A program made the translations under genes and the position numbers. Source: Ignavibacteria bacterium (GTDB taxonomy: Bacteria > Bacteroidota > Ignavibacteria > UBA10030). From it: 64,000 bases of DNA. The notes under the pieces are model-generated. The model was not told where the DNA came from. It ran no database searches and saw nothing but the letters and a program-made list of their open reading frames with translations. The stretch spans positions 8,522 through 72,521 of the forward strand of contig VGVZ01000014.1 of assembly GCA_016873805.1 (NCBI GenBank), written 5' to 3'. How positions within the stretch are numbered: position 1 is the first letter of the stretch; the number at the start of each line of letters is the position of its first letter. Positions 21,733-61,257 of the stretch are shown here, in pieces.

Positions 21733-21974
21733 GAGTCCCGATTCAGTTAATAACTGCAAGGCGTAAAAAGGGAAACAAGTGACAATGTCATGCTGATCCC
21801 GACGATTTCTGTCGGGAGACGCATCTGATCTCTCGGTGTTCAGATGCTGCGGCTGTCTCGCCGCTTGGGCTTGGCCGCTCTGCCCCGCCCGCGCCACCGT
21901 GAAACAGCAGCCCCGCCCCAAGGTGACTCAGAACGGGGTTGTTCTTTTCCAGACGGGAAAAGCAAATTGAATTC

Positions 21975-31139: not shown

Positions 31140-31499
31140 GGGGGTGACACGGCTTCGACGGGGATGAGGAAGCTCAGAACTGCATACCGTGGTCTCCGGG
31201 TCCACGTTAAACAATCGGTAAACCCTTAAGTGCCGACTACAACTACGCACTGGCTGCTTAATTAACTTAAGCAACCCGTTCTCTCGATCTCTCGCCCGTT
31301 GGGGATCTTGAGAACGTCGCTCAGATGGGCTAGTTCTCCATTGTTCTCAGGGATGGAGGACGAATCCGCCGCAAGCGGAACACCCTGAGATAGTGTGCGG
31401 TCAATCCAGCGTGCCGGAGTTTCCGCACATGAACCCAAAGGGCTCGCTACGTATGGAGACGTTCTGAGGGTCTTCTCTTCGGACCGGGGTTCGACTCCC
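31140..31499 (+). ncRNA. ssrA: tmRNA (SsrA); tag reading frame 31232-31261 encodes ADYNYALAA*
   Basis: 5' GGGGGTGACACGGCTTCGACGGGG (tRNA-like domain, G3 pairs with U giving the Ala identity pair). Tag ORF GCCGACTACAACTACGCACTGGCTGCTTAA. 3' T-arm GGACCGGGGTTCGACTCCCCG plus acceptor CACCTCC-A. Followed by a hairpin terminator. Confidence 0.8.
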
Positions 31500-31503
31500 C
31501 GCA

Positions 31504-31536
31504 CCTCCACTGCAAGCCCTCATCAGACCGATGAGG
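31504..31536 (+). terminator. Intrinsic terminator after ssrA
   Basis: AGCCCTCATC-agaccg-GATGAGGGCT followed by TTTT. Confidence 0.7.
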
Positions 31537-36081: not shown

Positions 36082-37092
36082 GTGAACATGATAGCTTCCT
36101 TGGATGAGCGTATACGCACCTTGCTGCGGCGCGTTCCAGCGCCCGGTATGGGCGTCGAAAACTCCTCTCGGCATACCAATCTTGGCGATCGCGCCTTTCG
36201 GGGTGCAACGTTCCTTTTCACCTTCATGATTGTCGTTCTGTCGGGCATCATGGTCTATCAGATGATTGACGGCTCTACGCTTTCACTGCGTGAATTCGGT
36301 CTCGGATTTGTGACATCTCAAATCTGGGATCCGGTACAGGAAAAGTTTGGTGCGCTCCCGTTTGTATACGGCACGGTCGTGTCCTCACTGGTTGCACTGA
36401 TCCTCGCAATTCCTCTGAGCCTCGGCGTTGCCGTCTTTCTCGCCGAACTCGCTCCACGCTGGCTGGAACGCATTCTTTCGTTCATGGTGGAGCTCCTCGC
36501 GGCAATCCCCAGCATCGTGTACGGGTTGTGGGGAATGTTTGTTATGGTCCCCTGGATTCGTGAGACAATCGAACCGCCCCTCTCCGAGCATCTCGGATTC
36601 CTCCCCATCTTCGAGGGAGCTCCGTACGGATTCGGCATGCTGGCCGCGGGATTGATCCTCACGGTTATGATCGTTCCGATCATTGCTTCAATTTCCCGCG
36701 ATGCCTTGAAGTCGGTCCCGCGCGCTCAACGGGAAGCCGCGTACGCCCTCGGTGCAACGCGGTGGGAGACAATTACCCTTGTCGTGAAGTATGCGCGCTC
36801 AGGAATCTTCGGTGCCACGCTCCTCGGTCTCGGGAGAGCACTTGGAGAGACGATGGCGGTCACCATGGTCATCGGCAACCGCCCGATCATCTCCGCCTCC
36901 CTCTTCGACCCGGGCTACACGATGGCAAGCGTCCTCGCCAATGAATTTACCGAAGCAACAACGGAACTGTATTTGCATGCCCTCATCGAGATCGCCCTTT
37001 TGCTTTTCACCATCACGATCATTGTCAACATGCTGGCCCGTCTCCTAATGTGGACCATGTCCAGAACGATTTCACAGGGAGGAAGAGCATGA
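36082..37092 (+). CDS. pstC: Phosphate ABC transporter permease
   Basis: PstC-like TM protein with the EAA-type permease motif. Confidence 0.9.
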   Translation: MNMIASLDERIRTLLRRVPAPGMGVENSSRHTNLGDRAFRGATFLFTFMIVVLSGIMVYQMIDGSTLSLREFGLGFVTSQIWDPVQEKFGALPFVYGTVVSSLVALILAIPLSLGVAVFLAELAPRWLERILSFMVELLAAIPSIVYGLWGMFVMVPWIRETIEPPLSEHLGFLPIFEGAPYGFGMLAAGLILTVMIVPIIASISRDALKSVPRAQREAAYALGATRWETITLVVKYARSGIFGATLLGLGRALGETMAVTMVIGNRPIISASLFDPGYTMASVLANEFTEATTELYLHALIEIALLLFTITIIVNMLARLLMWTMSRTISQGGRA

Positions 37093-55134: not shown

Positions 55135-56943
55135 ATGAAGCATTTGATGAGTCTCCGTATTGCTGCCCTTCTGATCGTTTCATCCGTTGCACTCTCCCAA
55201 CCTGTTCGGACTCCGGACATCACGATCGACGAGCTTCGTCACCACCTTCGGTATCTGGCATCCGATGAACTCGAAGGTCGGCGCGCAGGGTCCAAAGGCG
55301 CGGATCTTGCTGCTGAGTACATCGGAAAGGAGTTCAAGGCGTACGGATTGAAACCTGCAGGCGATAAGGGAAGCTATTTCCAGGAATTCGAGTTTGTGTC
55401 GGGCGTCGAACTCGGGAAGAAGAATGTATTCGCCGCAGGAGCGGGAAAAGAGAAACATGCCTTCACACTCGGCGCCGATTTTCGGCCGCTCGGTTTCTCC
55501 TCCACCGGATCGTTCAAGGGAGGAGTGATCTTTGCCGGGTACGGCATCACGGCGACCGAAAAACAGTACGACGACTACGCCGGTATCGATGTGAAGGAGA
55601 AGGCGGTGATTTTCTTGCGGTACCATCCGGAGGGAGACAATCAGCATTCCGAATTCAACCAGTTCGCCGCGTATCGATACAAAGCCACGAAAGCGCGAGA
55701 GCTTGGAGCGAAGCTGATCATCGTTGTCACAGGACCGGCCGATTCAGACAAGGATGAACTCCTGCGCCTCAGTTACGACAACACGATCGGCAATGCCGGA
55801 ATTCTGGCAGTCTCGATGACGCGCGCATCGTTGGACAAGCTCCTCCAATCGAGCGGAACTACCGTCAAACAGCTGCAGGAAGAGATCAACACGGTGAAGA
55901 AACCGAAATCATTCAACCTTTCAAATGTCACACTCGATGTCGCGCTGGAAGTGCACGAAGTGCGGATGAAAACGAAGAATGTCATCGGTTATTTGGAGGG
56001 ATCCGATCCCGCGCTGAAGGATGAGATCGTGGTCGTCGGTGCCCACTATGACCACCTCGGGATGGGGGGCGAAGGATCGGGTTCACTGAAGCCGGACACG
56101 ATTGCCGTTCACAACGGCGCGGATGATAACGGATCGGGGACTGTGGGGATGCTCGAGCTGGCGCAGCATTTCAGTGCAAAGCGAGGTGAGCTTAAGCGAA
56201 GCATGATGTTCATGGCGTTTGCCGGCGAGGAACTCGGCCTGCTCGGCTCAGCGAATTTCGTTAAGAATCCCACCATCGATCTCTCGAAAGTCGCCGTCAT
56301 GATCAACATGGATATGATCGGCAGAATGAGCGAGCGGAAACTCATCGTGTATGGGATCGGAACTTCTCCCGGCTTCAAAGATCTTGTGAACTCGCACAAC
56401 AGCGATTCGGCGTTCGTCCTCAAGCTCAATCCCGACGGGTTTGGTCCCAGCGATCATGCGTCGTTCTACGGCAAGAACATCCCTGTCTTCCATTTCTTCA
56501 CTGATTTGCACGGTGACTACCATCGACCTTCGGACGACGAGCCGTTGATCAACTACGACGGGCTGGCGCAGGTGCTGCGATATGTCGGAGCGATTGCTGC
56601 AGATTTGAATCAGCAATCCGCAAAACCCTCCTACGTGCAGGTTGAGGCTCCGCGCCCCGCCGGTGGTGGACGCGGTGTACGGGCGTACACCGGCACGATT
56701 CCGGATTTCGGCGAGCAGTCGGAAGGGATGAAGATTTCCGGTGTGCGCGAGGGAAGTCCCGCTGCAAAAGCCGGACTTCAGGGGGGCGACGTCATCATCA
56801 AGTTTGGGAAAGTGGACATCAAGAACCTGTACGATTACACGTTTGCGCTGGGCGAGTACAACATCGGAGACGAAGTTGACATCGTCGTGAAGCGGGGGAA
56901 CGAAGTACTAACCTTCAAGATCGTGTTGGAGAGAAGAAACTAG
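55135..56943 (+). CDS. M28-family peptidase with PA and C-terminal PDZ domains
   Basis: M28 metal ligands (HYDHLG, DDNGSG, EE), C-terminal PDZ (GLQGGDVIIKFG). Start at the internal ATG 55135 with a signal peptide. Confidence 0.75.
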   Translation: MKHLMSLRIAALLIVSSVALSQPVRTPDITIDELRHHLRYLASDELEGRRAGSKGADLAAEYIGKEFKAYGLKPAGDKGSYFQEFEFVSGVELGKKNVFAAGAGKEKHAFTLGADFRPLGFSSTGSFKGGVIFAGYGITATEKQYDDYAGIDVKEKAVIFLRYHPEGDNQHSEFNQFAAYRYKATKARELGAKLIIVVTGPADSDKDELLRLSYDNTIGNAGILAVSMTRASLDKLLQSSGTTVKQLQEEINTVKKPKSFNLSNVTLDVALEVHEVRMKTKNVIGYLEGSDPALKDEIVVVGAHYDHLGMGGEGSGSLKPDTIAVHNGADDNGSGTVGMLELAQHFSAKRGELKRSMMFMAFAGEELGLLGSANFVKNPTIDLSKVAVMINMDMIGRMSERKLIVYGIGTSPGFKDLVNSHNSDSAFVLKLNPDGFGPSDHASFYGKNIPVFHFFTDLHGDYHRPSDDEPLINYDGLAQVLRYVGAIAADLNQQSAKPSYVQVEAPRPAGGGRGVRAYTGTIPDFGEQSEGMKISGVREGSPAAKAGLQGGDVIIKFGKVDIKNLYDYTFALGEYNIGDEVDIVVKRGNEVLTFKIVLERRN

Positions 56944-57094
56944 ATTTGCGCTTACGCAGAATCCCCACAAAGACGAACCGCAGAGGACACTGAGGGGCGC
57001 AGGGCACTTGCGAGGAGCGTCCTGCACAGATTGGATGGCTTTTTTTCTTGGAGATTCAGCAACCGTTCGTTATATTTGGTCTGTTTGGTTGCAA

Positions 57095-57171
57095 GGGGTC
57101 GTAGTTCAGTTTGGTTAGAACGCCTGCCTGTCACGCAGGAGGTCGCGGGTTCGAGTCCCGTCGGCCCCGCA
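57095..57171 (+). tRNA. tRNA-Asp (anticodon GTC)
   Basis: Cloverleaf read by eye: acceptor GGGGTCG/CGGCCCC, D-arm GTTC..GAAC, anticodon stem CCTGC/GCAGG with loop CTGTCAC, T-arm GCGGG-TTCGAGT-CCCGT. Confidence 0.9.
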
Positions 57172-57209
57172 AAAGCAAAAATGCCCCTCGCGGGCATTTT
57201 TGCTTTTGC
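57169..57209 (+). terminator. Intrinsic terminator after tRNA-Asp (first copy of a repeated block)
   Basis: Perfect palindrome GCAAAAGCAAAAATGCCC-ctcgc-GGGCATTTTTGCTTTTGC. Confidence 0.7.
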
Positions 57210-57299
57210 CATTGATGATGCGGCTGTGTCCCGCTCGCTTTTTGAGCGGGGTCGGCCCTCGCAGAAAGAACTTCTTTCACAGGAAGCCTTTTTTTTGTT

Positions 57300-57566
57300 G
57301 TGGCACACTGGGTTTACATCATCCAAAGTGAGGCTGATGGAACGTATTATGTAGGTTCAACGGAAAACGTTTCCGCTCGTTTGGAGCAACACAATCTTGG
57401 CTGGACACGCTCAACGAAAGCGATGCGCCCGTGGAAGGTCGTCCATATCCAAGAGTGTCAGACGAAAACTGAAGCGATGAAACGTGAACGACAGATCAAA
57501 CAAATGAAGAGCCGTGTCTATATCCAGCGGCTCATTCTGGGCGCAGGAGGTCGTCCCGATCCGTAG
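57300..57566 (+). CDS. Small GIY-YIG nuclease-family protein (YhbQ/UPF0213-like), GTG start
   Basis: WVYIIQSEADGTYYVGSTENVSARLEQHN is the GIY...YIG...R...E...N motif. The ORF's last codons and TAG stop lie inside the tRNA-like fragment at 57543-57591. Confidence 0.65.
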   Translation: MAHWVYIIQSEADGTYYVGSTENVSARLEQHNLGWTRSTKAMRPWKVVHIQECQTKTEAMKRERQIKQMKSRVYIQRLILGAGGRPDP

Positions 57567-57591
57567 GATCGGGAAGTCCCGTCGGCCCCGC
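57543..57591 (+). pseudogene. tRNA-Asp 3' fragment with the T-arm replaced by a 9 bp perfect hairpin (TCCCGATCC-gtag-GGATCGGGA), followed by a terminator copy
   Basis: GCAGGAGGTCG[TCCCGATCCGTAGGATCGGGAAG]TCCCGTCGGCCCCGC compared with intact GCAGGAGGTCG[CGGGTTCGAG]TCCCGTCGGCCCCGC. Confidence 0.7.
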
Positions 57592-57705
57592 AAAAGCAAA
57601 AATGCCCCTCGCGGGCATTTTTGCTTTTGCCATTGACGATGCGGCTGTGTCTCGCCTGTCCCGCCAGAAAGCGGCGGGATCAATTTGGTTCTTTGCAGGA
57701 CAATC

Positions 57706-57746
57706 GGGGTCGTAGTTCAGTTTGGCTAGAACGCCTGCCTGTCACG
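57706..57746 (+). pseudogene. tRNA-Asp 5' fragment (positions 1 to ~39, through the anticodon loop) directly upstream of the integrase
   Basis: GGGGTCGTAGTTCAGTTTGGCTAGAACGCCTGCCTGTCACG, then unrelated sequence. Confidence 0.7.
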
Positions 57747-57881
57747 AGTATTTCTCCACGGTTTCTTCTTCATTTCTGATTTGTTTTCCGCACAGCGCCC
57801 TTCAAGCACCTTTCACGTCTTCTGACACTTTCCAGCCTTAGAGCTCTCAGCATCACTCATCTGCCACTTTTTGGAGGAGTT

Positions 57882-58883
57882 ATGCCGAGCCTCATACGTC
57901 ACAAAAACGGGATCTACTACGTCGTTTCCACGGACAAGGGCAAGCGAATCTGGCGATCACTCCGCACGAAGAACCGAAGGCAAACCTACCAGGTGTTCCT
58001 TGAGCGAAATCCCGCGGAGGTAGAGCAACAGGCACTATGTCTACAAGAGGCGGAGAACCAGTATCTGGACTACGTAAGCACCAACTTCTCACCGACCACC
58101 GTTAACGTATATCGAAATATTTCTTCCCAGTTCAACAAGTTCATTGGAAACCCACGTATCAACGAGATCACCATACGCGATATTGAGTTATACAAGTCCA
58201 GCCGAATTCGGACTGTTTCTCCAAGTACTGTGAACCATGAACTTCGGGGACACAAGGCGTTCTTCAATCGCCTTGTTATTTGGGATCTCCTCCCAAGGAG
58301 TCCAATGAACGGTGTGAAAACGATCAGAATCACGGAGAAGACCAGGCCGTATCTCTCGAAGGAGGAACTTCAAAGGCTTCTCGACTACACGAGCGGGACA
58401 CCGCTTCACGATATCATACTTCTGACCGTTATGACCGGACTTAGGAGAGGTGAACTCATCAACCTAACCTGGGAAGATATTGACTTCGCTCGAGGCACCA
58501 TCCTCGTCAGGAGCCGTAAAAATCACCAAACTAAAGCCGGAAAGAAACGGGTCTTGCCTATGAACACGACCGCAAGAATTCTTCTGGGGCAAATGAAGGG
58601 CAGACAAGGAAGGCTTTTTTCGGGTGAACGAGGGGGATTACTTAACGGGAACCTCTTGAGAGCAAGATTCAAAAGAACGGTGAGGGCGTGTGGTTTGGAT
58701 AGCAGACTTCATTTTCACTCACTCCGACATACGTTTGCCAGTTTGTTGGTTAAGGAGGGTGTTTCTTTGTATCATGTACAGAAACTCCTGGGCCATTCCT
58801 CGCCACGAGTTACAGAAATCTACGCGCACTTAGGTGGTGCTGAGTTGCTTGGATCCGTTGAAAAACTCTGCAACGAAAGGTGA
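57882..58883 (+). CDS. Tyrosine-type site-specific integrase/recombinase
   Basis: Catalytic residues in conserved context: R (LRRGE), HSLRHTFAS, LLGHSS, and nucleophile Tyr in TEIYAH. Confidence 0.9.
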   Translation: MPSLIRHKNGIYYVVSTDKGKRIWRSLRTKNRRQTYQVFLERNPAEVEQQALCLQEAENQYLDYVSTNFSPTTVNVYRNISSQFNKFIGNPRINEITIRDIELYKSSRIRTVSPSTVNHELRGHKAFFNRLVIWDLLPRSPMNGVKTIRITEKTRPYLSKEELQRLLDYTSGTPLHDIILLTVMTGLRRGELINLTWEDIDFARGTILVRSRKNHQTKAGKKRVLPMNTTARILLGQMKGRQGRLFSGERGGLLNGNLLRARFKRTVRACGLDSRLHFHSLRHTFASLLVKEGVSLYHVQKLLGHSSPRVTEIYAHLGGAELLGSVEKLCNER

Positions 58884-58961
58884 TTGTTCAACGTCTCTTC
58901 GAGGCGGGTGGGCGTGGGCAGATCCCTGGAGAAAGGAGGCGAGGCATGTCGAAGGTGAACA

Positions 58962-59279
58962 CTAATGTGGCGTTTCTGTCTTGTACTCTCTTTGACGTAG
59001 TCGGGATCGGATAATATCATTAAGGAGAGCGCGATCGAATTCCTGAATATTGTCGACATCGATCTTCTTGGTCAATTCACCCCTGGAGTACTCTAACGCC
59101 AATTGACCGAAAATCTCATCAAAAAAGGATACCGAGGCGACCAACACATTTCCGAAGTCGATCCTTATGGTGTCAACTTTGTTCCACTGGTCAATGATCA
59201 GGTCGTGAACTACTTTCCCGTCGTCTCGAGTGACGATGTTTTTGCCACACGTTTCAATTATGTTGATCATGTATTCCAT
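58962..59279 (-). CDS. Small STAS-like (DUF4325-like) protein, putative partner of the adjacent GHKL ATPase
   Basis: 105 aa. IRIDFGNVLVASVSFFDEIFGQL resembles the DFSGV..ISSSFLDEL core of STAS/anti-sigma-antagonist-like domains. Family assignment is from memory only. Confidence 0.4.
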   Translation of the reverse strand: MEYMINIIETCGKNIVTRDDGKVVHDLIIDQWNKVDTIRIDFGNVLVASVSFFDEIFGQLALEYSRGELTKKIDVDNIQEFDRALLNDIIRSRLRQREYKTETPH

Positions 59280-59281
59280 AC

Positions 59282-60214
59282 TCAGAATATTGGCTCGTCT
59301 CGCATCTCTGATTCGAGGATATATAGCCCCTCTCCGTCGGCCCTCGCAATAATATTGACAATTGTGCCTTCAAAAGCAATCCGGAGCTTCTTCTGCCAAA
59401 TGGCGACACCATTGCCATTCTTGTAGTTCCAGTGGACCCATCCATCTCCAGACATGATATGGATTTCGCCCTCGTTGACCTTCAAGAATCTATGGATATG
59501 GGTTAATCCAAGACCAGCGAGTTTCCCAACGCGACTCGAAACGCCCTCTTCAATGGCAAGCTTAATTGCATCAATTGAATTTGTAAGATGAGCATAGGTG
59601 GGAACAGAGGACAGAGCCCTGAGGATACCACGCCCAAAATCTGTAATACAGATGTTTACGTTGCCTCGTTCGGTGTAGGATTGAGCGCAAACAAAACATC
59701 CTTCCAGTGTTTCACTATGGTCAAAGGTATTCGTCATCAGCTCGTTGATACTCAGGTGCAGGGAATCCTTCACCCCCTGGGACATAGTCAAAACACTCTG
59801 AAGAACGTTGATGATCGTGCTTGTGTATGTTGGATCCAATCCGTTGAAATGCCGTAGTTCCGCTTGGTGATGGGCATATTTCATGGCTCCATCTCGCCCT
59901 TTCCCCCATTCGTAGAATCCAATGCTTGTCAGATATTCATTGAGTTTCTTGTTGAGTGCAGGACGGTAGCTAACAACATGTCCGCGCGCGATACACGCTT
60001 TGGCGGCTCCAACAATGAAAGTGATAGCGAATGGATCGCTGAAGGCGCAATTGGACAAGTCAAACAGTATCTCCTGATCAGGGGAGAAAATTGCGGCTTG
60101 GCACCTTTCGATGATGCAATTGGCATTCCTGATGGTGAGAAGCAGCGGGAACTTTACGACATGCATATTGGAACTCGCGATGGTTGGCTCAGAGTATCGC
60201 AAAAATAGCAACAT
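59282..60214 (-). CDS. GHKL (HATPase_c) ATPase/kinase-like protein with N-terminal STAS-like domain
   Basis: N-box LSINELMTNTFDHS (ExxxNxxxH), G1 ITDFGRGI (DxGxG), G2 GKLAGLGL. The N-terminal ~140 aa (EILFDLSNCAFSDPFAITFIVGAAK) is STAS-like. Adjacent small gene separated by 3 bp. Confidence 0.55.
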   Translation of the reverse strand: MLLFLRYSEPTIASSNMHVVKFPLLLTIRNANCIIERCQAAIFSPDQEILFDLSNCAFSDPFAITFIVGAAKACIARGHVVSYRPALNKKLNEYLTSIGFYEWGKGRDGAMKYAHHQAELRHFNGLDPTYTSTIINVLQSVLTMSQGVKDSLHLSINELMTNTFDHSETLEGCFVCAQSYTERGNVNICITDFGRGILRALSSVPTYAHLTNSIDAIKLAIEEGVSSRVGKLAGLGLTHIHRFLKVNEGEIHIMSGDGWVHWNYKNGNGVAIWQKKLRIAFEGTIVNIIARADGEGLYILESEMRDEPIF

Positions 60215-60595
60215 TGGCGACCAATTTCAATTCCTGGGTTCATGAACTTTCTTCGGATGTTTTGACGACTGTCTGAGAATGACATCGGTCCCACCAATGT
60301 TGTGACAATCTGCGGGGTTGAAGATGGTGTCTTCCCGATCGCACAACTACCTCAGAAGCGATATGATCTCGGGATCGAGGAGGCAAATTGACGTGCAAAG
60401 ATAAAAACAGTCACGTCCAGCGAGGCGCTATCGCAATCAACATCATGGCGAGTGGATCGAAAAAGCACCCTCCGATTTCGGGATTAGACTTTTCGGGATC
60501 CACACAGTTAGATTTGACCCCGAGCCGGCGTAGTATGTGCTTGGAACGCCATCTGGCGAGTGATTAAGAAAAGTTATACCTTTCGAATGTTCCTT

Positions 60596-60671
60596 AGTTT
60601 GGTTAGAACGCCTGCCTGTCACGCAGGAGGTCGTCCCGATCCGTAGGATCGGGAAGTCCCGTCGGCCCCGC
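60596..60671 (+). pseudogene. tRNA-Asp 3' fragment (from the D-loop onward) with the same hairpin-substituted T-arm, followed by a terminator copy and flank repeat
   Basis: AGTTTGGTTAGAACGCCTGCCTGTCACGCAGGAGGTCG[TCCCGATCCGTAGGATCGGGAAG]TCCCGTCGGCCCCGC. Shares a 27 nt D-loop-to-anticodon-loop overlap with the 5' fragment at 57706-57746. Confidence 0.7.
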
Positions 60672-61257
60672 AAAAGCAAAAATGCCCGCGAGGGGCATTT
60701 TTGCTTTTGCCATTGACGATGCGGCTGTGTCCCGCTCGCTTTTTGAGCGGGGTCGGCCCTCCCAGAGCAGACCCAATCCCCCATCGAGGGGGTTGGGTCT
60801 TTTCTTGTAATGGGCACGTGACTCTATCCCGCCTGATTATTTTCACTTGCAGATAACTTGTGGGCGCTTAGCGTTTTCGAGAAAAAACTCTTCCGGTAGT
60901 GTCGTTACTCCAAAGAGATAAAGGATGCCTGTCGCTCCCCCACCTTGCAAGATACAACTACCCCTTCCGGCATGCGGCAAGATGTCTTCCTTTCGTTGAT
61001 CCAACCTCTCGACGCTCATCAGCATCGATGACACGGCCTTCCCGTCGAAACAGACCATGGAACGTTGATCCTCCTGAGTCTGCTGGAGATTGTTCCTTTC
61101 CGTCCTCTCTTGCAACACCAACGTGTGGAACGATAACGTACTTTTCCGATGTTCATCTGAGCGACAGTTTCCGGCAGCAATTCTCATTTTTGCTTCTCAG
61201 GAGTTATTTGTATATTAAGCTGATTTTTTCAGACCGCATGAAGGACAGAAGACGTAG

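Follow-up and report, generated by a model that had tools for sequence, protein, structure and literature searches.

In a 64-kb stretch of a contig from an Ignavibacteria bacterium (assembly GCA_016873805.1, contig VGVZ01000014.1), a canonical tRNA-Asp gene is followed on the same strand by a short open reading frame (ORF) for a GIY-YIG-type nuclease, and then by a partial copy of the tRNA gene in which part of the T arm has been exchanged for a perfect palindrome. This whole stretch of 64,000 nucleotides (nt) is referred to below as the window, and its numbering is used throughout. An earlier interpretation made from the letters alone, here called the sequence-only reading, had located an 88-codon GTG-initiated ORF between the intact tRNA-Asp and its first partial copy, and this layout was borne out (tRNA at 57095-57170, ORF at 57300-57566, partial copy at 57543-57591). 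Comparison with related loci revealed that ORF, partial tRNA copy and hairpin belong together as a single conserved cassette directly downstream of a tRNA gene. It looks like a previously undescribed tRNA-linked selfish or semi-domesticated DNA cassette. The components in the window are as follows.

57095..57170, plus strand: canonical tRNA-Asp(GTC), the anchor of the cassette (ARAGORN; Rfam tRNA, 70.5 bits; promoter region orthologous to that of contig L094).
57169..57209, plus strand: terminator-like hairpin with an 18-base pair (bp) perfect palindrome, copy 1 of 3 (repeat search; recurs at 57590-57630 and 60670-60710).
57300..57566, plus strand: GIY-YIG (UPF0213/SLX1-like) nuclease ORF, 88 amino acids, GTG start, TAG stop in the hairpin loop (ORF list; Pfam PF01541).
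57543..57553 (GCAGGAGGTCG), plus strand: left flank of the tail, comprising the 3' strand of the tRNA-Asp anticodon stem, the variable loop and the first T-stem base (identical to 57135-57145).
57554..57574, plus strand: family-specific perfect palindrome of 21 nt, TCCCGATCC-GTA-GGATCGGGA (sequence; covarying homologous hairpins; RNA fold).
57575..57591 (AGTCCCGTCGGCCCCGC), plus strand: right flank of the tail, comprising the T-loop end, the 3' strand of the T stem, the 3' acceptor strand and the discriminator of tRNA-Asp (sequence, repeats).
57590..57630, plus strand: palindromic terminator-like hairpin, copy 2 (repeat search).

The tail, 57543-57591, copies the tRNA from the 3' strand of the anticodon stem to the 3' end, with 24 nt lying inside the ORF and 25 nt beyond it, and its left flank encodes the last ORF residues (AGGR). 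Within this copy the palindrome stands in for eight nucleotides, tRNA nucleotides 50-57 (CGGGTTCG), which constitute the 5' strand of the T stem and the start of the T loop. The TAG stop codon occupies 57564-57566, with TA in the hairpin loop and G as the first base of the 3' arm, so that the final codons and the stop do fall inside the substituted T-arm hairpin, as had been claimed. The tail belongs to a three-copy repeat family of 114 nt, at 57121, 57542 and 60622, which takes in the 18-bp palindromic terminator. A hairpin scan was carried out over the window and the sampled loci. The pattern TCCCG-N-CGGGAAG occurs three times in the window against 0.41 occurrences expected by chance, two of them being perfect hairpins at the tRNA-Asp locus and the third an unrelated, non-palindromic stretch at 36716. 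Taken together with diverged copies, all the hairpins of the window are located at the tRNA-Asp locus, apart from an unrelated-looking one at 21797.

Three relatives of the ORF (49-56% identical) exhibit a single order, tRNA-Asp, ORF and tRNA 3' copy with a TCCCG...CGGGA hairpin. The wider scan used one genome per species and yielded 80 genome loci that were found through the protein alone; the total sample comprises about 85 homologous loci from at least eight phyla and, because the loci were picked through one peptide pattern, they represent a subfamily and not all UPF0213 proteins. They derive from Bacteroidota, Ignavibacteriota, Desulfobacterota, Cloacimonadota, Calditrichota, Marinimicrobia, Nitrospirota, Armatimonadota and others. 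Among the 69 ORFs with enough flanking sequence, 53 have a tRNA gene on the same strand within 1.5 kb upstream, 63 carry the hairpin, and 67 show one or both of these features; the 3' end of a tRNA lies within 100 nt upstream of the ORF in 35 of 71 cases. The local tRNA is mostly tRNA-Asp, with Gly, Arg, Val, Ala and Pro taking its place in different lineages. The sequence-only reading had proposed looking for the unit of ORF and hairpin beside tRNA-Asp or other tRNAs elsewhere, and it is indeed present in dozens of genomes from several phyla. As a control we used 489 kb from 80 loci of relatives, anchored on the neighbouring gene for the E1 dehydrogenase component. No GIY-YIG ORF of this type was present in these 489 kb, and hairpins occurred there at a density of 3.1 per 100 kb against 46 per 100 kb at the GIY-YIG loci, a 15-fold difference.

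The composition of the tail follows simple rules. It consists of about 15 nt of local tRNA sequence, the hairpin and the remainder of the tRNA to its 3' end, often followed by the same terminator as the tRNA itself; L003 additionally repeats the initial 33 nt of the ORF. Two types were distinguished. In type A, which is found in the window and in phyla of the Fibrobacteres-Chlorobi-Bacteroidetes (FCB) group, the hairpin takes the place of nucleotides 50-57, with a left flank beginning at about nucleotide 35. In type B, it is precisely the anticodon arm (nucleotides 27-43) that has given way to the hairpin, with a left flank beginning in the D arm; this type occurs in Desulfobacterota and Nitrospirota, at a tRNA-Ala locus of Armatimonadota, at tRNA-Arg loci of Aquimarina and at one tRNA-Pro locus. 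In Aquimarina, whose species are cultivable, between one and three units follow the tRNA-Arg gene. The two types constitute separate clades in a rough neighbour-joining tree of the ORFs. Deviating arrangements were also found: both arms are replaced at L073, two hairpins are present in one tail at L078, and a pseudo-tRNA-Asp fragment in L075 and L096 has its D loop interrupted by two hairpins. Fragments of the last kind, ..GCTCAG-hairpin-TTTCG-hairpin-CTCAAyTTGGTT.., are located at 2929-3005 of L096 and at 1822-1950 and 2354-2430 of L075, and are thus common to an Ignavibacteria-like contig and a Bacteroidetes contig; in L096 the fragment lies directly upstream of a canonical tRNA with no nuclease ORF nearby.

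Within these layouts the tRNA-derived sequence follows the local tRNA. The right flanks of type A are 97% identical to the local tRNA-Asp, compared with 81% to the tRNA-Asp of other loci, and every tail was closer to its local tRNA than to the mean of the others (36 of 36 for type A and 31 of 31 for type B). Both flanks track the local tRNA even in lineage-specific compensatory changes, exemplified by GCAGAAGG in L004 and TCTGCCCC in L009. The position of the stop codon is less regular: of the 61 homologues with a hairpin, 28 terminate in the loop and 29 ahead of the hairpin. The overlap of stop and loop highlighted by the sequence-only reading is therefore real in the window and frequent elsewhere, but it is not required, and we discarded it as an obligatory feature of the unit.

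The palindrome itself was examined in 102 distinct hairpins, in which the TCCCG/CGGGA base is fixed by the search pattern. Their stems extend over 6-12 bp with loops mostly of 2-4 nt, and stem base pairs 6-9 covary freely among A-T, T-A and C-G. Of 754 internal stem pairs, 752 are Watson-Crick pairs with one G·T and one G·G, whereas 42 canonical tRNA-Asp genes of these loci have, in their acceptor, anticodon and T stems, 67 G·T among 714 pairs (9.4%). Perfect palindromy combined with covariation is what one would expect of a structure that has to arise on both DNA strands alike, whether as a cruciform or as a hairpin in single-stranded DNA, and the base-pairing pattern points to a constraint of this kind as a better fit to the stems than an RNA-only constraint or a simple site for a dimeric binding protein. 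The possibility that the hairpin is a decayed local T stem was rejected, given that CGGGA is kept even where the local T stem is GCGAG/CTCGT.

These results bear directly on the possibility that the unit operates at the level of RNA, with read-through from the tRNA promoter driving an ordinary cellular gene and the tail constituting a 3'-untranslated module. The tail would then set the 3' end of the mRNA, stabilise it, recruit tRNA-processing enzymes or bind the protein in an autoregulatory manner, with the stop in the loop forming part of the control. The start codon of the cassette nuclease abuts the tRNA terminator and, in many loci, the ORF starts 14-60 nt past the tRNA, immediately after the T-run of the terminator, such that co-transcription is likely. 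Moreover, hairpin and tail fold stably as RNA (z = -8.4 with the terminator included), and the 28 stops in the loop, the long occupancy of the locus and the selection on the ORF (see below) would all be in accord with such a role. Set against this, RNA-only structures usually tolerate G·U pairs, which are almost absent from the stems, the stop precedes the hairpin in 29 cases, and the tail lacks a 5' acceptor strand and would therefore provide no tRNA-like substrate for RNase P or RNase Z. An RNA element would also leave unexplained the ORF-less arrays, the hairpins in D loops and the pseudo-tRNAs upstream of tRNAs, and Rfam yielded nothing except tRNA at the locus: a scan of 56900-61000 at permissive thresholds gave only tRNA, a sub-threshold tRNA match on the pseudo-tRNA and one chance snoRNA match. 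We consider the RNA-level explanation unlikely, though by no means negligible. A tRNA-like fold combining the tail with an upstream 5' acceptor strand was sought separately and dismissed; there is no complementary 5' strand, and GGGGTCG at 57249 is probably part of what remains of an older tail.

The protein matches the Pfam GIY-YIG family PF01541 with E=1.4e-18 and 67.4 bits (cut-off 22.6) over residues 3-71 of 88, and the N-terminus of the GTG-started ORF aligns with the starts of its homologues, which range in length from 73 to 110 amino acids. A family profile matched the UPF0213 structures 1zg2 (2.4e-13) and 1ywl (2.1e-10) followed by SLX1 (7cq2, 1.2e-5), and the catalytic residues Y6, Y17, R27, H31 and E63 are invariant among 12 aligned sequences. 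From these comparisons the protein is assigned to the UPF0213/YhbQ/SLX1-like branch of the GIY-YIG superfamily, whose members BH0048 (1zg2) and EF2693 (1ywl) have the same single GIY-YIG domain of about 80-100 amino acids with the same Y, Y, R, H and E residues. The subfamily considered here differs from other UPF0213/YhbQ proteins in its tie to tRNA genes and to a palindrome embedded in tRNA sequence, and in carrying the motif HNxGW(T/S)(R/K)STK in place of the usual UPF0213 motif HNxGxGAKYT. The sequence-only reading had envisaged, as a finding that would speak against it, a conserved housekeeping gene of the YhbQ type at non-tRNA loci with no hairpin overlap; the gene is indeed of UPF0213/YhbQ/SLX1 type, yet it is found at tRNA loci and with the hairpin. 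In moderately diverged pairs, differences at codon positions 1, 2 and 3 number 66, 54 and 223, respectively, and the ORF has the appearance of a real gene under purifying selection. Bacterial UPF0213/YhbQ proteins are the nearest prokaryotic relatives of eukaryotic SLX1, a structure-specific nuclease that acts on branched and stem-loop DNA, but we know of no established function for the bacterial proteins.

An analogy with classic homing nucleases, which had been drawn from the GIY-YIG assignment, proved weak. Enzymes of the Seg and I-TevI types are 200-250 amino acids long and owe their site specificity to a C-terminal DNA-binding domain. The 88 amino acids of the window protein are taken up by the catalytic domain, with no separate DNA-binding domain, and this bare domain of 80-90 residues, most similar to SLX1-type proteins and not to I-TevI or Seg, is encoded on the chromosome and not by a phage. 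The NCBIfam model grpIintron_endo scored 17 bits against a cut-off of 56, and neither NCBIfam nor PADLOC offered a specific family for the nuclease.

The C-terminal ends of the homologues are informative in another respect. The last eight residues are encoded by tRNA and hairpin DNA and vary with the reading frame. A word-index protein search retrieved 13 relatives, several of which end in GAGGRPDP or GGRPE and two in GEVVPI, and the peptides GGRPD and EVVPI are one DNA sequence, GAGGTCGTCCCGAT, in two frames, which places the conservation at the level of nucleic acid and not of protein. In an exhaustive HMMER search 655 clusters (50% identity) matched the window protein at E<=1e-10 and 7244 at E<=1e-3; at least 37 of the best 150 matches end in peptides translated from tRNA or hairpin DNA. 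Many gene-called homologues (e.g. P0009, at L005 3001-3333) also bear N-terminal extensions of 20-60 residues, such as GSLVVPALNKL, which are translations of an upstream tRNA tail, so that annotated lengths in the family are inflated.

A 3' ORF end that enters a conserved hairpin element adjoining target-derived sequence recalls TnpB with its omega-RNA in IS200/IS605 elements, and IscB with HEARO. By analogy, the nuclease might be directed to tRNA genes or tRNA-like nucleic acids by an RNA, with the tail transcript acting as a tRNA-mimicking adaptor or guide. The overlap of the ORF end with a structured element, bordered by target-matching stretches, one of about 15 nt and the opposite one of 17-33 nt, and the use of the same DNA in different frames would be compatible with this. 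Nevertheless, such a role seems very improbable to us: a single domain of 80-90 amino acids has no known means of holding a guide RNA and is far smaller than TnpB or IscB, the flanks are identical and not complementary to the tRNA, an attack on the essential canonical tRNA gene would be lethal, and the perfect DNA palindromy argues against a role confined to RNA. No sign of a guide RNA was seen at these loci and the element behaves as a DNA palindrome.

Evidence that units are multiplied, reduced and lost was obtained from many of the loci. Full units occur in tandem, with four of 369 nt in L049, three in L041 and pairs elsewhere, their ORFs being 69-100% identical. Between the tRNA-Asp and the GIY-YIG ORF of L019, at 777-1961, lie 12.4 tandem copies (97% matches) of an ORF-less unit of 96 nt made up of the terminator and a hairpin-substituted tRNA-Asp tail, and the hairpin of this array differs from that of the ORF tail. 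Decay is exemplified by L044, with two tails derived from tRNA-Val that keep the last codons of a lost ORF, and by the truncated ORFs of L011, L058, L080 and L083. Full-length pseudo-tRNAs with a substituted arm are present in the window and in L044, L049, L088 and L012. Two contigs from the same species as the window differ from it: in L002 the pseudo-tRNA-Asp is uninterrupted, and in L092 a 624-nt segment of ORF, tail, terminator and pseudo-tRNA is duplicated. Thus both the copy number of the unit and the occupancy of an integrase island (described below) vary within the population.

Empty sites were sought through the downstream E1 dehydrogenase gene and, among close relatives, synteny of the tRNA-Asp was found only in L094 and in L096/L097. 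This gave one clean empty site, L094, with the orthologous tRNA-Asp, the same promoter and an E1 dehydrogenase component 87% identical but no cassette, and one ORF-less site still carrying hairpins, since L096 and L097 retain only hairpin-bearing pseudo-tRNA fragments. The conserved site is accordingly empty in L094 and occupied in the window and in L004, a presence/absence pattern of the homing type. The overall picture is one of long residence together with gain, loss, amplification and decay. In the alignment of L094 (2150-2420) with the window (57010-57215), the tRNA-Asp and its promoter have the opposite orientation relative to the E1 dehydrogenase operon, and a convergent gene of L094 has a 3' end similar to the window segment CATTGAyGATGCGGCTGTGTCyCGCC, which is a repeated one. 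The idea that the native terminator lies only after the whole array was not supported; this alignment suggests that the palindromic terminator is itself the orthologue.

Arrays and copy-number variation could also arise passively, if an old tandem duplication of tRNA-Asp had caught a small nuclease gene, with gene conversion maintaining the flanks of the decayed copy and the hairpin being a neutral element similar to the repetitive extragenic palindromic (REP) sequences. The window does contain tandem tRNA-Asp copies, which have about 25 nt of upstream leader in common, and gene conversion and unequal crossing-over are to be expected between direct repeats spaced by a few hundred bases, which would be enough to generate arrays and variable copy numbers. 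What neutral decay would not generate is the same stem base, perfect stems and fixed junctions in at least eight phyla and at six tRNA identities, and neither the 15-fold enrichment of hairpins around the ORFs nor their retention by 63 of the 69 ORFs is in keeping with a neutral hairpin. This origin is, in our judgement, distinctly improbable.

Further features of the window lie within or beyond the cassette and include remnants of tRNA-derived units and an integrase island.

57229..57260, plus strand: degenerate TCCCG hairpin (TCCCGCTC..GAGCGGG) followed by TCGGCCCTC (sequence; duplicate at 60730-60761).
57659..57705, plus strand: a further TCCCG hairpin (TCCCGCC-AGAAAGC-GGCGGGA; 57659-57679) followed by TCAATTTGGTT (similar to the leader of the D-loop-hairpin pseudo-tRNA of L096 and L075).
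57706..57746, plus strand: 5' part of a second tRNA-Asp-like gene (pseudo-tRNA), cut by the integrase island (repeat, 98% identity; contiguous with the hairpin-bearing 3' part in L002 and L092).
57747..60595, plus strand: integrase island of 2.85 kb, not part of the GIY-YIG unit (Pfam; 28-nt direct repeats; absent from L002).
60596..60669, plus strand: 3' part of the pseudo-tRNA-Asp, with the same hairpin (60634-60654) replacing the 5' half of the T arm (repeats; sequence).
60670..60710, plus strand: third copy of the palindromic terminator-like hairpin, in which the loop is inverted (including the loop, 100% complementary to copies 1 and 2).
60730..60761, plus strand: second copy of the degenerate hairpin and acceptor remnant (sequence).

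The degenerate hairpin at 57229-57260 is probably the remnant of an older tail, and 57659-57705 is apparently what is left of a D-loop-hairpin pseudo-tRNA leader of the type seen in L096 and L075. The second tRNA-Asp-like gene is full length and bears the same hairpin; it is split in the window (57706-57746 and 60624-60669) and contiguous in L002, and when joined it folds as a cloverleaf with the hairpin at the position of the T arm. Neither this gene nor the degenerate hairpin remnants at 57229-57260, 57659-57679 and 60730-60761, nor the conservation of the unit far outside this genome, had been noted in the sequence-only reading. The terminator-like 18-bp palindrome follows each tRNA 3' end, and the loop of copy 3, which is the reverse complement of loops 1 and 2, suggests an inversion between the arms.

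The island encodes a tyrosine recombinase (57882-58883), a DUF4325 STAS-like protein and a HATPase-like protein (Pfam), the last with weak DrmA-like matches in PADLOC. It is bounded by 28-nt direct repeats (57719-57746 and 60596-60623) that extend from the D loop to the anticodon loop, in the 5' half of the tRNA, and it sits in the hairpin-bearing pseudo-tRNA-Asp and not in the live tRNA. As it does not restore the 5' end of the tRNA, insertion into a functional copy would destroy that copy, and hairpin-bearing pseudo-tRNAs can thus provide harmless landing sites for other elements. The GIY-YIG ORF is the only one between 57171 and 57591, the integrase lying outside the unit, and the island is an element separate from it.

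This separation is relevant to the proposal of the sequence-only reading that the unit could be a remnant of att-site processing. On that view an integrase would have inserted DNA at tRNA-Asp and displaced attR, now seen as the partial tRNA copy, with the GIY-YIG gene left behind as cargo. Like elements that use tyrosine integrases to target tRNA genes, the unit brackets DNA between an intact tRNA and a partial 3' copy, an arrangement which is both an established signature of such integration and described as one in PMC9897764, and an integrase island does lie 180 nt downstream in the window. However, that island has its own repeats in the 5' half of the tRNA, occupies a pseudo-tRNA and is absent from the conspecific L002. 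Units elsewhere measure only 250-400 nt and include no integrase, and none was seen beside the GIY-YIG units read in other genomes, although these loci were not screened for integrases. An att repeat would, moreover, be continuous, whereas the 3' repeat of the tRNA is interrupted here by the exchange of 8 nt of the T arm for the conserved 21-nt palindrome. We therefore regard the att-site interpretation as extremely improbable. The two hairpin positions, anticodon arm and T arm, do coincide with crossover sublocations of integrases: Williams is said to have distinguished in 2002 two classical ones in tRNA genes, in the anticodon loop and the T loop.

A phage origin was also considered and rejected. 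A search of 2.9 million viral contigs yielded two relatives, L088 and L089, both at contig ends and beside a tRNA-Pro or a tRNA-Arg-like tail, where they probably belong to host flanks; this suggests that the two are prophage calls which include host flank at a cassette-bearing tRNA.

The reading that we favour, while putting it somewhat short of an even chance, is that of a tRNA-anchored cassette of nuclease and palindrome which acts on DNA and persists by recombination with tRNA gene copies. The palindrome would be a DNA-level cis element, in hairpin or cruciform form, serving as substrate or binding site of a structure-specific nuclease, and the flanks derived from tRNA would act as homology that travels with the unit. 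Once the palindrome had been broken or nicked, repair would proceed through recombination with the adjacent tRNA gene or another tRNA copy, which would account for the identity of the flanks to the local tRNA, the tandem arrays and the ORF-less mini-units, and copying of the hairpin into redundant tRNA copies would produce pseudo-tRNAs with a replaced arm. A unit of this kind could enter any genome having a similar tRNA and leave that tRNA intact.

A bolder version, which we find possible although rather doubtful, sees the SLX1-like mini-nuclease and the TCCCG...CGGGA palindrome as a partnership that colonises and edits tRNA copies, a GIY-YIG counterpart, in its logic, of the REP/RAYT systems. 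Such a partnership would swap tRNA arms for the hairpin, insert via tRNA homology, and leave behind pseudo-tRNAs and arrays of tails.

Several observations weigh against the DNA-level cassette as we have outlined it. The unit looks long-resident rather than actively mobile: L004 keeps it at the same locus of tRNA-Asp and E1 dehydrogenase operon, where the neighbouring proteins share 72-75% identity and the nucleases 56%, and a rough tree of the ORFs follows taxonomy, an agreement that suggests low mobility or domestication. Hairpin-bearing pseudo-tRNA fragments are present in L096 with no ORF within 2.5 kb, about one quarter of the ORFs lack a strict hairpin at the stop, and the link between nuclease and palindrome in this subfamily is, at the level of sequence, purely one of association. 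If the nuclease cut its own palindrome, the cassette would be the recipient and not the donor in double-strand-break repair, with no evident selfish gain, and cleavage of canonical tRNA arms would amount to suicide. That said, the suggestion of a tRNA-linked selfish element in the sequence-only reading is a reasonable one in view of the presence/absence pattern, the variable copy number, the arrays, and the ORF-less and decayed units.

Among known systems the behaviour of the cassette comes closest to that of free-standing GIY-YIG homing genes, represented by segB of phage T4, and is also reminiscent of REP/RAYT, although defining features of both are lacking. REP/RAYT systems combine a nuclease-type gene with flanking palindromic repeats that have a conserved base and a covarying upper stem, and they are largely vertically inherited with local and decayed copies. 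The cassette shares with them the single nuclease-type gene, the short palindromes with conserved base and covarying upper stem, the largely vertical inheritance, the local copies and the decayed derivatives. It differs in that RAYTs are HUH/Y1 (IS200-like) transposases and not GIY-YIG proteins, that REPs are spread over the genome whereas the hairpins of the window, except for that at 21797, are confined to tRNA-derived sequence by the gene, and that the stems here are perfect. For SegB, the published account (PMC2330249) describes a free-standing GIY-YIG gene in a phage tRNA cluster whose product cuts within the region of the tRNA genes and, through gene conversion, causes its surroundings to be inherited preferentially. 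The cassette resembles it in placing a free-standing GIY-YIG gene among tRNA genes and in being present or absent among related genomes; the palindrome and tRNA-derived tail are features of the cassette with no known SegB counterpart.

We found no description of a unit of tRNA, GIY-YIG gene and palindrome in the full-text literature, including an article on prokaryotic tRNA fragments (PMC9897764), and no published link of UPF0213 or YhbQ to tRNA genes in the same literature. One UPF0213 subfamily now has a specific partner among nucleic acids, namely the perfect palindrome within the copied part of the neighbouring tRNA gene, and this association leads to the hypothesis that the nuclease acts on hairpin or cruciform DNA. 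Should the colonising partnership prove correct, it would provide a first defined substrate and biology for the large uncharacterised UPF0213 family of bacteria. The cassette also represents an origin of partial and pseudo-tRNA genes independent of both integrases and CRISPR, which bears on tRNA annotation, and it suggests a way in which a gene can be inserted beside an essential and universally conserved gene without damaging it.

Two minor observations were made elsewhere in the window. The intergenic perfect hairpin at 21797-21817, TCCCGACGATTTCTGTCGGGA, has a base of the family type and flanks with no recognisable likeness to tRNA, and could be a chance occurrence or a dispersed copy. A tmRNA gene is located at 31140-31510, with the tag peptide GKPLSADYNYALAA.

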